Shown here one piece after another: positions 3,974 through 32,712 of a stretch of DNA of 64,000 nt. Origin of the DNA: a virus (lineage: Duplodnaviria > Caudoviricetes); the IMG/VR virus record IMGVR_UViG_3300036964_000424, positions 1 through 64,000 of that record. One strand, 5' to 3'. The notes under the pieces are model-generated. The model was not told the origin of the DNA and did no database searches. It worked only from the letters and a program-made list of their open reading frames with translations. Each line of letters opens with the position of its first letter. Positions within the stretch are counted from its first letter, which is position 1. The position numbers were made by a program, and so were the translations under genes.

Positions 3974-5110
3974 TTACATCGCCCAATCATCTATATAGTT
4001 ATCTGTTATATAAATTTTGCGTTTAGAATACTTTTTACCCAGATAGCTAATTGATCCATTTTCGTCTAGAAAAGGTATTTCGATATCTTTTTGTTTATTT
4101 GCTTTTATATTTTCAATAATGCCATCTCCAAAAACCAGCCAAGCAAAAGATTTATTGTCATTAGGATGCAGTTCATAGCATATAACTACCGCCAAAGAAG
4201 CTAATTCTTTTATATTAGAAGAAATCAATAAGGCTTCTTGCCGAATATATTTGCAATATTGTTCAATAGTTTTAAATCTTCTTTCTCCATCAATATCTTT
4301 TATTGAATCAAAATTTCTCCTCCCCGATTTATATTTCTTATATAGCACATAAAGCTTATCTAATTTATCTTTATCTATTTCAAAATTTCTATCTTTTAAT
4401 ATTTTTGCATTAAATTCTTTACTTCTGGATCTTCCCAAACCTTTTATTTCTTTTATTTCCCCTTGCATATAGTTAGAAATATTGTTTGTAATGCAGTTTG
4501 TTTCCACCAGTGGGTTATATCGATTAAATTGATCAATAAAAGCTTTCTGATCTTTTGTTAGTTCTGATTCTTCCAAAGATAATAATTCATCCAAGAATAA
4601 GCAAAACTTAGCTTGGGAGTATGTATCATAATTTTCCCGATATCGCTTATATTCTTTAGAATAATTGCTATATACATCAACCATAAATTTAGGGCGTTTA
4701 GAAACAATAATTCTATTATTAAATTCTGCAATTTCCCTTTCCTCCTCACTCATATCTTCAGTTATTTTTGACCAATTTGTCCAATGCGAAGGGATTGACC
4801 TAATAACCAATCCTTTCGTTGCATCTATAATAGCCCCTTGTTCTTTCCGGCATTGCTTTAGCCTTCTAATGATTCCATTATATTCTTTACTGTTTTCTTC
4901 AAACATTGGCAGCATAGCATACATTGTTGTACTAAGGTTAGTTAGGAATCCTACTTTCGTATTGAATCCGTTCATATCAGCCTTATACAATTCGGATTCT
5001 ACTATATTGCATTCGGGTGCCTTTTTTGTTTCATACATTATTGGTAATCCGCCATAGGCTCCATTGATAATATCTTTTTGATCTGTTAGGCATATTATAT
5101 CACCATCATA
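3974..5110 (-). CDS. YonO-like RNA polymerase, exon 2
   Basis: Begins TAT GAT GGT GAT (YDGD); contains GFNTKVGFLTN and QGAIIDATKG motifs of the cellular RdRP/YonO family. Confidence 0.85.
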   Translation of the reverse strand, partial: YDGDIICLTDQKDIINGAYGGLPIMYETKKAPECNIVESELYKADMNGFNTKVGFLTNLSTTMYAMLPMFEENSKEYNGIIRRLKQCRKEQGAIIDATKGLVIRSIPSHWTNWSKITEDMSEEEREIAEFNNRIIVSKRPKFMVDVYSNYSKEYKRYRENYDTYSQAKFCLFLDELLSLEESELTKDQKAFIDQFNRYNPLVETNCITNNISNYMQGEIKEIKGLGRSRSKEFNAKILKDRNFEIDKDKLDKLYVLYKKYKSGRRNFDSIKDIDGERRFKTIEQYCKYIRQEALLISSNIKELASLAVVICYELHPNDNKSFAWLVFGDGIIENIKANKQKDIEIPFLDENGSISYLGKKYSKRKIYITDNYIDDWAM

Positions 5111-29382: not shown

Positions 29383-29461
29383 TTGTTATACGAAAATGTT
29401 TAAATTGCCTATTGACAAAATTTTAGCATTGTGGTATTATTATGTTAAGGAGAATAACAAT

Positions 29462-30364
29462 ATGCTAAAAGAATACGAAGTTTATTTAGAAACGCTTAAG
29501 ATCGATAAAAGTAAGGAAACTTATCGATCGTATAAACATATTTTAGAAAATTTCTTCAATTCGATGAAGATTGAAAGCATTGAAGATATTAAAAATATGA
29601 AAAGTGAAGATATTCAAAATTATATAAACCATATGATAATTAAAAAGGAGGGTGAAGATCAGAATAGTATAAATAAGGCAAAAGCCACAGCCAATGCACA
29701 TTTAAGAGTAATAAAAGCTTATATGAATTGGCTGGTTAGTAAGAATTATATTCTTGAATCGCCGGCAAATAAAGTCGCAAGGTTTAAAGAGGCGCAAACC
29801 ATAGCGACTGTTTTTACAAAGGAGGAAAGGGATAAAGCAATCCTAAATACTAAAAATAAAGCAGAATTACAATTAACAATTGCAATACTTTTTTATACAG
29901 GAATTCGCTGTGAAGAGGCGGTGAATATAAAATTATCTGATATTAAAGATGGCGTACTCCTTGTGCACGGAAAAGGAAACAAGGAACGCCAAATACCATT
30001 GAATCCATTTCTACAAGAACTTATTAAAAAATGTTTATTGCAACGCAAGCATAAGAGCGAATATTTACTTGCGTCAGCTAGAGGAGGGCACAAAATTAGT
30101 ACAACTTCTTTATACAAAAGAGTAAAAACAGCTTGCGAAATTGCTGGTATTGATCAAGACAAGATTGAAAAATTAAGCCCGCATAGTGTTCGCAGATCGT
30201 TAGCTTGCTTTTTACTTATGGATGGTGCTTCATCATCCGTTATACAAAATGTGCTAGGGCATGCTAATTATAAAACAACGGAAAGATATATACGCCCAGC
30301 AATTGCCTTAGCCGCAAGGAAAACACTATTAGAACAGGAACCGCCTTCATGGTGGGGGAAATAA
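29462..30364 (+). CDS. XerC/D-like tyrosine recombinase
   Basis: TGIRCEE, HGKGNKER, PHSVRRS, LGHAN..TTERY; ATG 29462 lies after promoter 29412-29440 and AAGGAG. Confidence 0.92.
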   Translation: MLKEYEVYLETLKIDKSKETYRSYKHILENFFNSMKIESIEDIKNMKSEDIQNYINHMIIKKEGEDQNSINKAKATANAHLRVIKAYMNWLVSKNYILESPANKVARFKEAQTIATVFTKEERDKAILNTKNKAELQLTIAILFYTGIRCEEAVNIKLSDIKDGVLLVHGKGNKERQIPLNPFLQELIKKCLLQRKHKSEYLLASARGGHKISTTSLYKRVKTACEIAGIDQDKIEKLSPHSVRRSLACFLLMDGASSSVIQNVLGHANYKTTERYIRPAIALAARKTLLEQEPPSWWGK

Positions 30365-31032: not shown

Positions 31033-31662
31033 ATGGCAGTTGTAAATATGAGTGTGCATCGTGGTTTATCAGAGTTGAAACTATATGCTAACAAAATTGC
31101 AAGTTTAAATTCTGAGCCATTTGTTGTTGCCAACAAACAATCAAACAAAACTATTGGTGGTAGATCGATTGAAGATGTAAATAACTTAATTAAAGGTAAT
31201 TTTGATAGTATGGTTGCATTGATTGAAAATAGAAAACGAATTAAAGATGCTATTGTAAAATCAAACGCTGCAACCAATGTTACAATTGCTGGGAAAATAA
31301 TGACAGTTGCTGAAGCTATTGAGCGTAAAGCATCTATAGAATTTGAGAGGAATTTTCTTAGAATTTTACAGGATCAATTTTCACAGCAAAATAATATTGT
31401 TGAACAACAAAATCTGCAATTACCGACTAAACTTGAAACATTCTTGCAATCAACACTTGGAGAAAAAAGAGACGTTGCTACGGTAAAGGATTTGACAAAA
31501 ACATTTGAAGACAATAATAAATATGTTTTGATTGATCCTAATCATATTCAAGATTATATTCAAGCCCTCGATAAAAGTATTAATGAGTTTGCGTCACAAG
31601 TAGATTATACTTTATCTGAAAGTAATGCAACAACATTTTTTGATGTAGAATTAGTTGATTAA
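31033..31662 (+). CDS. Coiled-coil protein (resembles DIP1984-like phage proteins)
   Basis: GLSELK...I, IVKSNA.T.V.I.G..MTVAEAI, IDP, VDYTLSESNA.T. Confidence 0.7.
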   Translation: MAVVNMSVHRGLSELKLYANKIASLNSEPFVVANKQSNKTIGGRSIEDVNNLIKGNFDSMVALIENRKRIKDAIVKSNAATNVTIAGKIMTVAEAIERKASIEFERNFLRILQDQFSQQNNIVEQQNLQLPTKLETFLQSTLGEKRDVATVKDLTKTFEDNNKYVLIDPNHIQDYIQALDKSINEFASQVDYTLSESNATTFFDVELVD

Positions 31663-31667
31663 ATAGA

Positions 31668-31969
31668 ATTGTGCTGGTTATGCGAAAACCAAAAATATTA
31701 TTGTCGTCTGGCATAAACGTTATTATGCCACACCATTGATTATGGACAAATCCATTGCAGAATTGTAAATTTTGTTACTCTATTCTTGCACAGAGTTTGT
31801 TTCAAAAATCAAAGGTAAAAGATTAAAGGACAAAACACAAACATCATATTGTCAAGATTGAAAATTGAAAGATATAAAGAACAAGAATCTTTTAAATCTT
31901 TGATAAATGGTTTAGGTGATACAATAATGTAACCGTTGGTTATCCACAAAGCTGTATAATCAGCACAAT
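31668..31969 (+). ncRNA. Putative ~300-nt structured RNA with heptamer array
   Basis: 16-bp closing stem 31668-31683/31954-31969 with two G-U pairs; internal hairpins; NNNAAAG-type 7-nt periodicity at ~31800-31890. Confidence 0.65.
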
Positions 31970-31974
31970 AATAT

Positions 31975-32045
31975 TGCGGGGTTGAGTAGTGGTTACTCCC
32001 AAGAGTCATAATCTTGTTACATGCGTTCAAATCGCATCCCCGCTA
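31975..32045 (+). tRNA. tRNA with CAU anticodon (Met, initiator-like acceptor stem)
   Basis: TGCGGGG/CCCCGCT acceptor with 1-72 mismatch; CAAGA-GTCATAA-TCTTG; ATGCG-TTCAAAT-CGCAT. Confidence 0.75.
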
Positions 32046-32048
32046 CAT

Positions 32049-32129
32049 GGAGAAGCTGGACATGAGTGAGTCCACCTGACTGTAAATCAGGCGTTAATAC
32101 TGTAAAGGCGCACATACCTTTCTTCTCCA
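32049..32129 (+). tRNA. tRNA-Tyr (GUA)
   Basis: GGAGAAG/CTTCTCC acceptor; CCTGA-CTGTAAA-TCAGG; long variable region; atypical T loop. Confidence 0.7.
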
Positions 32130-32217
32130 CTATTATGTGATATATGTTTTTGTAGCAATTTGTTACGTGGTTTTGTGGTTATAATTTTCTTTATATCGTT
32201 GTAGACAATAATTATAT

Positions 32218-32290
32218 GCTTCTGTACCCAACTGGTTAAGGGAACTCTCTTATAAGGAGCGATATGTTGATTCGAATTCAACCAGAAGCA
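32218..32290 (+). tRNA. tRNA-Ile (UAU)
   Basis: GCTTCTG/CAGAAGC acceptor; CCC/GGG D stem; CTCT-CTTATAA-GGAG; GTTGA-TTCGAAT-TCAAC. Confidence 0.72.
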
Positions 32291-32343
32291 CTTAGGTGAT
32301 GGGGAATATAAGATTTTTTATTTTTTATTTTAGGAGGTAAAGA

Positions 32344-32712
32344 ATGTTTCCATTTTCTGATTTTTTTTGGTTTGATGATAGTGCTTATCGGTTTAATCGC
32401 CCAATGCTTGAACGACAAGGATGGTATAGTAAAGAAAAAGATGGCAAGTTATTATTGCTATTAAATGTATTGGGTGTAAATGAAGATGATTTGAATATTG
32501 AAGTAAAACCTGTTGAAAATAACAAAGAAGTTATTTGTATCAATGGCAAAACTAAGGATGAATTATTTGATAGGGAATTTAGTGTCAATATGAATTTCAT
32601 GATTAGTAAGCCAATGGAACAGGTAAAGACAAGCGCAAAAAATGGACTCCTTATTTTAGAAATAGAGTTCAAAGAGCCTGTAAAATCATCTGTAAAGATT
32701 ATTAAGGGATAA
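32344..32712 (+). CDS. Small heat-shock protein (Hsp20/alpha-crystallin)
   Basis: LGVNEDDLNIEV...I.G...SAKNGLLILEI; AGGAGG RBS. Confidence 0.75.
   Translation: MFPFSDFFWFDDSAYRFNRPMLERQGWYSKEKDGKLLLLLNVLGVNEDDLNIEVKPVENNKEVICINGKTKDELFDREFSVNMNFMISKPMEQVKTSAKNGLLILEIEFKEPVKSSVKIIKG

Follow-up and report, generated by a model that had tools for sequence, protein, structure and literature searches.

A 64,000-nucleotide (nt) stretch of the 100,289-bp virus record IMGVR_UViG_3300036964_000424 of IMG/VR, referred to below as the window, carries the gene of a 209-amino-acid (aa) helical protein and, directly behind it on the same strand, a structured non-coding RNA that is closed by a long stem and holds an A-rich array of 7-nt units (Table 1). 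That this RNA exists, and that it forms a module with the gene, can be stated with near certainty. The RNA, called here the heptad RNA, belongs to an uncatalogued family, and the gene-RNA pair is probably an undescribed protein-RNA particle. A preliminary description, drawn from the letters of the window, had proposed this open reading frame (ORF) followed by a closed RNA of about 300 nt, and every element that it listed is indeed in the sequence.

The partner protein is widespread. It matches phrog_1491 as a full-length profile match (E 1.4e-56, residues 5-206), and its counterpart in phage T5 is the annotated gene T5.085. Word-indexed relatives number 167, from 99% down to about 46% identity, and 2,946 protein clusters (50% identity) match the profile with an E of at most 0.001; of 150 clusters listed, almost all have lengths of about 203-217 aa and a single continuous match. 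A scan of viral contigs with the single protein as query returned no close relative, and an alignment query was needed. With tblastn, the protein was found in 746 phage records, among them those of phages of Pseudomonas, Vibrio, Bacillus, Klebsiella, Lactococcus and Erwinia as well as of Salmonella and Escherichia phages related to T5; in T5-like phages the identity is 36%, with 96% of the query covered. The module is present as well in the culturable genera Lysinibacillus and Brevibacillus. 'Tail fiber protein' is the label of phrog_1491 and of the partner protein in hundreds of GenBank records, including many of T5-like, Bacillus and Lactococcus phages; neither the fold nor the genomic context of the protein supports it.

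The RNA follows the gene throughout this family. Twelve spacers from relatives with 60-100% protein identity, aligned over their whole length, served as the seed of a covariance model, R1, whose E-values are rough owing to a shortened model calibration. We then fetched 240 loci: 80 viral, 80 from metagenomes and 80 from bacterial or archaeal genomes. A match to R1 lies directly 3' of the homologous gene in 59, 75 and 75 of them, respectively, or 209 of 240 in all, which bears out the protein-RNA module suggested beforehand. The gap between the stop codon and the closing stem (P1) has a median of 8 nt and is at most 14 nt in three quarters of cases, and the median length of the RNA, from P1 arm to P1 arm, is 305 nt. 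The match in the window extends from 31665 to 31972 (267.5 bits); that in T5 (NC_005859, 43145-43427) is on the same strand as T5.085. There is one RNA per gene, and the window's genome has no orphan copies. By blastn, the spacer is conserved behind homologues of only 45-76% protein identity. The window's protein belongs to the T5.085/phrog_1491 family, and all helices, the array and the 3' position of the R1 family map to the window.

Base pairing is conserved across the family despite changes in the letters. When RNAalifold was applied to the 12-spacer alignment, it returned the closing stem together with the first hairpin, and compensatory changes in them are numerous. In a larger set of 100 sequences (99 distinct), examined for all helices except P4, 90.9% of pair cells hold a standard pair, versus 63.1% after shuffling (none of 500 shuffles scored as high) and 33-42% when the strands were slid by 1-3 columns; changes on both sides are seen in 37 of 40 pairs, and the covariation score is 0.648 against 0.193 for shuffled alignments. 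Helices P1b, PK1, PK2 and P4 were not part of the R1 search model, so that the pairings of P1b, PK1 and PK2 cannot have been fitted by the model that made the alignment, and an unbiased all-against-all covariation scan places these same helices first. P4 falls in insert columns and was tested apart: a helix of 6-10 bp is found at the same offset, 5 nt past P1b, in 94 distinct members, with sequences that are unrelated from clade to clade. Being conserved and covarying in about 200 related loci, the element is far beyond what chance would produce. The covarying stem and the heptad period that the preliminary description expected downstream of homologous genes were both found.

In the window, the RNA begins 5 nt past the stop codon and stops 5 nt short of a transfer RNA (tRNA) gene, tRNA-Met. 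The 312-nt spacer folds at -78.7 kcal/mol, with a z of -6.2 on the plus strand versus -3.8 on the minus strand. The 16-bp P1 stem that had been described, with its two G-U pairs (31677-31960 and 31682-31955), was verified at these coordinates; two G-U pairs are invariant among the 12 closest relatives, and those of the window would be C-A mismatches if the minus strand were read. Together with the strong covariation, this agrees with the suggestion that the element functions as RNA from the plus strand. PK1 pairs CGU with ACG in the window, and CGC with GCG or CCC with GGG in relatives. The 5' and 3' domains are interlocked by P1b, P4 and PK2, which together with PK1 in the P2 loop make up a knotted core. 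The RNA is thus a closed molecule with three crossing contacts, from which a variable region and the heptad array loop out. Two hairpins had been pointed out inside the stem. The first, P2, covaries in relatives; the second (31756-31763 / 31782-31790) is present in the window, where it sits in the variable stretch, and is not conserved by relatives. A further hairpin that we considered, in which the last heptads would pair with the U-rich stretch that precedes PK2, is not consistently supported by the family alignment and was dropped.

Table 1. Positions in the window of the gene, the heptad RNA with its parts, and the adjoining tRNA.
Feature	Position	Strand	Basis and remarks
Gene of the 209-aa helical protein	31033-31662	+	ORF list; phrog_1491 profile; partner of the RNA
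Structured non-coding RNA, P1 5' arm to P1 3' arm, 302 nt	31668-31969	+	Covariance model, fold z, covariation
P1, closing stem, 16 bp	31668-31683 / 31954-31969	+	16 of 16 pairs with compensatory changes; 90.2% of cells paired
P1b, nested inside P1, 5' strand AACCA	31687-31691 / 31937-31941	+	4 of 5 pairs compensatory; 86% of cells paired
P4, pseudoknot, 3' strand within the P3 loop	31694-31703 / 31920-31929	+	Same-offset helix in 94 distinct relatives
PK1, pseudoknot, 3' strand within the P2 loop	31705-31707 / 31717-31719	+	3 of 3 pairs compensatory
P2, hairpin	31710-31716 / 31723-31729	+	7 of 7 pairs compensatory; 90.8% of cells paired; extra outer U-A pair
Variable region with local hairpins	31731-31800	+	Alignments; not kept in relatives
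Heptad array, about 12 units, consensus U-Y-A-A-A-G-N, 57% A	31803-31886	+	Lag-7 identity, parser, unpaired prediction
PK2, pseudoknot, CUUUG/CAAAG, crosses P1b	31898-31902 / 31947-31951	+	99% of cells paired; at most 6 pair types per position
P3, hairpin, loop holds the P4 3' strand	31909-31912 / 31931-31934	+	92.6% of cells paired; mostly one-sided U-A/U-G changes
tRNA-Met (CAU)	31975-32046	+	ARAGORN and Rfam; starts 5 nt past P1

The array is as regular as the core is intricate. Over 31800-31900 the identity of the window with itself at a lag of 7 is 0.52, a value reached by one of 5,000 shuffles, and a simple repeat parser, on which all the heptad counts given here rest, finds 10 units in phase and 2 more after a slip of 1-2 nt, in line with the dozen or so degenerate heptamers noticed earlier. 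In the family, mean identity peaks at lags 7 (0.46), 14 (0.44) and 21 (0.39), and in 95% of members no lag from 2 to 13 is stronger than 7. Within the unit UYAAAGN, most information is carried by U1, A3 and A4, and little by positions 2, 6 and 7. The number of units has a median of 12 (exactly 12 in 46 of 100 members, 11-13 in 71), 875 of 1,034 steps are of 7 nt, and in 63% of members the last unit ends exactly 10 nt upstream of PK2. In the window, the array is predicted to be mostly unpaired (probability 0.62, versus 0.32 for the variable region).

Selection on the two partners could be compared in Lysinibacillus, where about 17 species keep the module at one syntenic site, flanked by a major facilitator superfamily (MFS) transporter gene and an RlmCD-like methyltransferase gene. 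Pairwise identity among these species is 0.69 at third codon positions and 0.946 at first and second positions of the gene, and 0.919 in the RNA core. The array stands at 0.838, with 0.89 for its A columns and 0.79 for the remaining columns. Since identity in the core and in the array exceeds that of third positions, the RNA is under purifying selection and the spacer letters of the heptads are not hypervariable. Both partners, gene and RNA, are under purifying selection.

For the partner protein, AlphaFold2 (AF2), run with 29 sequences, predicts long helical hairpins and a small sheet made up of the two termini and a central beta-hairpin (local confidence score, pLDDT, of 88). A single fold match stands out, 3kdq (Z 11.6, root-mean-square deviation 5.5 Å over 150 aligned residues), which is a protein of unknown function from Corynebacterium diphtheriae; the remaining matches are generic helical hairpins and bundles. 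A sequence search against solved structures gave chance-level matches only, and the ESM Atlas unnamed clusters only. When three copies were predicted together, the score was 0.56, the best of three controls reaching 0.00; among proteins of solved structure, 20 of 30 homodimers and 1 of 23 single-chain proteins attain the mark used for this score. Contacts agreed by at least 71% between runs, and the pLDDT of the partner was at least 84. The predicted interface uses the same residues on both chains, as in a two-fold dimer, so that the protein is predicted to self-associate as a symmetric dimer. Outside this interface, at the end of the sheet, lies a set of invariant polar residues: S7, H9, R10, E14, K16, N66, N78, D191, Y192, S195, E196, N198 and T201.

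The surroundings of the module differ between phages and bacteria. Phages often carry it within a cluster of tRNA genes. The fetched flanks contain a tRNA gene in 38 of 80 viral loci and in 31 of 80 from metagenomes, in each case on the strand of the module, and in only 5 of 80 genome loci. In six members of the window's clade a tRNA (Met twice, Leu, Gly twice, Tyr) begins 0-7 nt behind the RNA, an adjacency that fits co-transcription and a 3' end made by RNase P; in the window's phage, a cut at tRNA-Met is a probable means of setting the end of the RNA. The RNase P end anticipated from the abutting tRNA thus agrees with the window's clade and does not extend to the family in general: in a Lysinibacillus copy (locus L165), a promoter-like site, the gene, the RNA and a strong intrinsic terminator follow one another in this order, and the RNA ends at the terminator. 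Because bacterial copies mostly have no tRNA, the invariant unit consists of gene and RNA, and the link to tRNAs is a habit of phages. Outside the syntenic Lysinibacillus site, the genes next to bacterial copies are unrelated and include a TOTE conflict-system gene. From this genomic arrangement, gene and RNA appear to be a co-transcribed and co-inherited pair.

How might the two partners work together? A motif of fixed period and fixed count, on a loop clamped by a core, suits a binder present in several copies, and we infer that the partner protein is this binder because it is the only constant companion of the RNA. With its conserved polar patch the protein, probably as symmetric dimers, would read the UYAAA motif of successive heptads; each RNA would then take up about 12 protomers (6 dimers) and become a defined ribonucleoprotein (RNP). 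As the RNA starts within the ribosome footprint of the stop codon, assembly in cis is possible: a terminating ribosome would hold P1 open, and the nascent protein would emerge beside its site, which would favour such assembly. In this phage, an RNase P cut at tRNA-Met would free the 3' end. We consider the case evenly balanced for a dedicated RNP of this kind, with dimers of the protein seated on the heptads. For any specific cellular role our confidence is well below one half; our best guess is post-transcriptional control, either by titration and release of the protein in the manner of CsrA/CsrB, or by an RNP that acts on translation or on RNA turnover. Tentatively, and with more doubt than confidence, we also put forward that the pair may stand for a new class of RNP of phages and Bacillota, in which some six dimers on the twelve heptads of a pseudoknot-locked loop would form a closed particle similar in standing to tmRNA-SmpB or Ro-Y RNA; its role during infection would concern translation, tRNA or RNA turnover.

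Several points weigh against this proposal. The contact predicted between protein chains is that of a two-fold dimer, and not the head-to-tail or lateral contact that forms rings. The protein is mildly acidic (isoelectric point 5.1-6.8, net charge -5 to 0). The number of heptads ranges from 4 to 18, a spread that is partly alignment noise. Finally, the knotted core exceeds the needs of a mere scaffold, and the RNA may therefore have an activity of its own.

Other explanations account for part of the data. The RNA could be a cis-acting element of the 3' untranslated region, the knotted fold of which shields the mRNA from 3' exonucleases or serves as an operator for autocontrol, with no RNP acting in trans. 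The location of the RNA between stop codon and terminator in L165, the median gap of 8 nt, and the presence of one RNA per gene with no orphans in the window's genome all agree with this. However, some 300 nt, three pseudoknots and 12 phased units go far beyond the requirements of known stabilisers or operators, the RNA core comes close to non-synonymous sites in its conservation (0.92 versus 0.95), and in the window's clade RNase P, cutting at the adjoining tRNA, would release a defined piece from the downstream RNA; we hold this explanation to be unlikely, if worth keeping in mind. In another proposal, the heptads would act as a sponge or decoy and capture a host factor, for instance a binder of A-rich RNA or a ribonuclease, the protein serving only to fold, protect or deliver the RNA. 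An array that is 57% A and largely single-stranded by prediction, an acidic partner, and carriage by phages of very different hosts, for which the target would need to be universal, are compatible with such a decoy. Yet the strict linkage of gene and RNA, kept across about 2,900 protein clusters, suggests that the two are direct partners, the vertical inheritance of chromosomal copies in Lysinibacillus is harder to explain if the decoy is aimed at the bacterium's own factor, and the 7-nt motif matches no known binder, so that we find the decoy improbable.

A conflict module was also considered, either a toxin-antitoxin pair of type III, the antitoxin-like role being one of those first suggested for the RNA, or a defence or counter-defence device of accessory regions. 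The unit is indeed small, autonomous and made up of two parts, it is found in the tRNA and accessory regions of phages and scattered over bacterial chromosomes, once next to the TOTE gene, and it combines repeats with pseudoknots as ToxI does. Nevertheless, PADLOC and Pfam give no match, no toxin resembling ToxN is present, and the predicted helical bundle is not an RNase of the ToxN/AbiQ type, as would be expected of ToxIN, CptIN, TenpIN or AbiQ systems. Moreover, the RNA lies downstream of its gene and not upstream, its units are of 7 nt instead of 34-45 nt and sit inside a single closed fold, and about 17 Lysinibacillus species keep the module at a single syntenic site among housekeeping-type genes; we judge a conflict role quite improbable, and the comparison with type III antitoxins was not supported. 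A guide resembling that of VIPR, in which the protein would hold the conserved letters of each heptad and the variable ones would spell a gapped code for a nucleic-acid target, takes its appeal from positions 2, 6 and 7, which carry little information, and from the precedent of a phage protein paired with a short tandem-repeat RNA that has a pseudoknotted tail (bioRxiv 10.64898/2026.04.26.720920). This is very improbable, given that the variable positions are more identical among Lysinibacillus species than third codon positions are (0.79 versus 0.69) and thus not hypervariable, that each locus has a single RNA instead of several, that the protein is predicted to be helical, with no RAMP among its fold matches, and that the period is 7 and not 5. 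Readings at the level of DNA or coding (a tRNA promoter with an A-tract element, replication iterons, a small ORF) could invoke the A-rich, periodic region and a TATAAT-like hexamer in the 3' arm of P1, just upstream of tRNA-Met. We regard them as practically excluded by the covariation, by the G-U pairs, which function only as plus-strand RNA, by bacterial copies that have no downstream tRNA, and by the 7-nt phase. The promoter reading was rejected in that relatives keep the P1 pairing and not the hexamer, and the small ORF in that no plus-strand ORF of at least 30 aa is present there and a 7-nt period with slips of 1-2 nt breaks any reading frame; the earlier remark that this period cannot derive from codons is thereby upheld.

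If the protein does load onto the heptads, as in the dedicated RNP that we favour, this would be a new way to build an RNP, and it might explain in part why large phages retain tRNA and accessory regions. An intricate and widespread RNA, in which three contacts are pseudoknotted and the phased units are fixed in number, has no Rfam entry, its partner has no Pfam entry, and purifying selection on them spans phages of Gram-negative and Gram-positive hosts and whole bacterial genera. The presence of the module in T5, Lysinibacillus and Brevibacillus makes its function open to direct experiment.

Some features around the module deserve mention in their own right. The genome is AT-rich, and its plus strand carries nearly all genes between about 10 kb and 61 kb. 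Two genes upstream of the module lies a tyrosine recombinase gene (29396-30364, plus strand; Phage_integrase, E 1e-30), in a genome that otherwise resembles that of a large phage of virulent type. In the tRNA-Met gene, pair 1-72, which tops the acceptor stem, is a U-U mismatch, and a tRNA-Ile (UAU), called by ARAGORN and Rfam, starts at 32218. Between the two, at 32050-32130 on the plus strand, is a tRNA-like sequence: its acceptor stem has 7 bp, a D arm is present, the anticodon arm carries GUA (Tyr) in a loop of 7 nt, and the T loop is non-canonical. This sequence was called neither by ARAGORN, even at a relaxed threshold, nor by Rfam; in a relative (L097), a regular tRNA-Tyr is found immediately past the heptad RNA. 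Two other relatives have a tRNA or tRNA-like sequence within the variable region of the RNA itself: a tRNA-Phe at 2292-2364 of L122 (RNA match 2205-2573), and a sequence with an odd anticodon loop at 953-1025 of L112. Processing at such an internal tRNA would give an RNA in two pieces, joined by the core helices. In T5, the annotated 719-nt 'RNAX, stable RNA with unknown functions' (NC_005859, 40848-41566; L162, 4849-5567) lies just upstream of tRNA-Arg, some 1.6 kb away from the heptad RNA; the two are distinct, and R1 does not match RNAX. In addition, an AT-rich viral contig (L066) carries a drum RNA (RF02958, 47.7 bits) at 4413-4520, some 420 nt downstream from its heptad RNA, and two twister ribozymes of type P5 lie about 2.4-3 kb upstream of the module on a contig of a Parabacteroides metagenome-assembled genome (L240, 21-82 and 587-644).

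The heptad RNA and its partner were compared with catalogued families. As the preliminary description had advised, Rfam was searched, and no family matched the heptad RNA: Rfam 15 finds only tRNAs in the window and nothing relevant up to E 10 over 31400-32400, nor does it match the RNA in 20 phage loci or in 10 bacterial loci (E up to 0.1). For RAGATH-27 (RF03100), an orphan candidate small RNA with an 86-position motif and a gathering score of 76.1 bits, the best score in the window's genome is at most 17 bits, away from the module, and in nine other module-bearing records no hit exceeds the cut-off and none was reported at the module. The protein matches no Pfam family (E up to 0.1), and nothing in NCBIfam or PADLOC. 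The long non-coding RNAs that phage K carries beside tRNAs (PMC9241854) were discarded as relatives, for R1 gave no match to them on the right strand and gp233 is unrelated to the partner protein (hhalign probability 0.1). The main text of the CRISPRi-ART paper on T5 does not mention T5.085, and our literature search found no publication on the gene-plus-RNA module.

Among systems of related organization, GOLLD and ROOL are uncharacterised, highly structured RNAs of phages and prophages, often beside tRNA genes (PMC5737381; bioRxiv 10.1101/2024.12.08.627333). The heptad RNA likewise is an uncharacterised, structured phage RNA that often lies near tRNA genes, but GOLLD and ROOL are 2-3 times larger and have neither a fixed partner gene nor a heptad array, and their models (RF01998, RF03087) match neither the window nor the 20 phage loci. 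In VIPR, the partner of a phage protein is an RNA in which 9-16 short tandem repeats are joined to a conserved, pseudoknotted part; the repeat is YNNGG (5 nt) with a hypervariable NN, and the vrRNAs are about 100 nt long, with several per locus (bioRxiv 10.64898/2026.04.26.720920). Both are mainly phage-borne, minimal loci with one protein and a pseudoknotted short-repeat RNA. The repeats differ, since the heptad RNA has 7-nt UYAAAGN units with constrained spacer letters and no YNNGG with a hypervariable NN, and so, by prediction, do the proteins: Vipr is an RRM/RAMP protein, whereas the partner described here is modelled by AF2 as a helical bundle, whose matches include no RAMP fold, although a list of folds alone cannot exclude one.

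The likeness to tmRNA and SmpB lies in the adjacency of the partner and RNA genes, the paired ends of the RNA, and the pseudoknots that flank an unstructured internal stretch. In contrast to tmRNA, the heptad RNA has no tRNA-like acceptor/T-arm domain, CCA end or tag ORF; neither ARAGORN nor Rfam calls a tmRNA on it, there is no reading frame in the array, and by Pfam scan the partner protein is unrelated to SmpB. Two Bacillus systems, in which TRAP binds the trp leader RNA and HutP the hut leader RNA, also bear comparison. TRAP reads 11 triplets, and HutP reads UAG every 7 nt. As in these, a fixed short-period motif is repeated on single-stranded RNA with a conserved period and copy number, and would here too be read by several subunits. 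Their arrays, however, are attenuators in the 5' leaders of regulated operons, whereas the heptads belong to a closed, knotted RNA behind the protein's own gene, and the partner, with its predicted helical fold, matches neither the TrpBP nor the HutP family of Pfam (0 families, E up to 0.1). The sponge RNAs of CsrA, CsrB and RsmZ, differ in that the heptad RNA has no GGA motifs, its units are strictly phased, and its partner has no CsrA domain; sponge genes are also unlinked to csrA, while the heptad RNA is fused to the 3' end of its partner's gene. What the module has in common with the CsrA system is a dimeric protein, predicted in the present case, and an RNA with many copies of a motif, in which about 12 sites could seat about 6 dimers.

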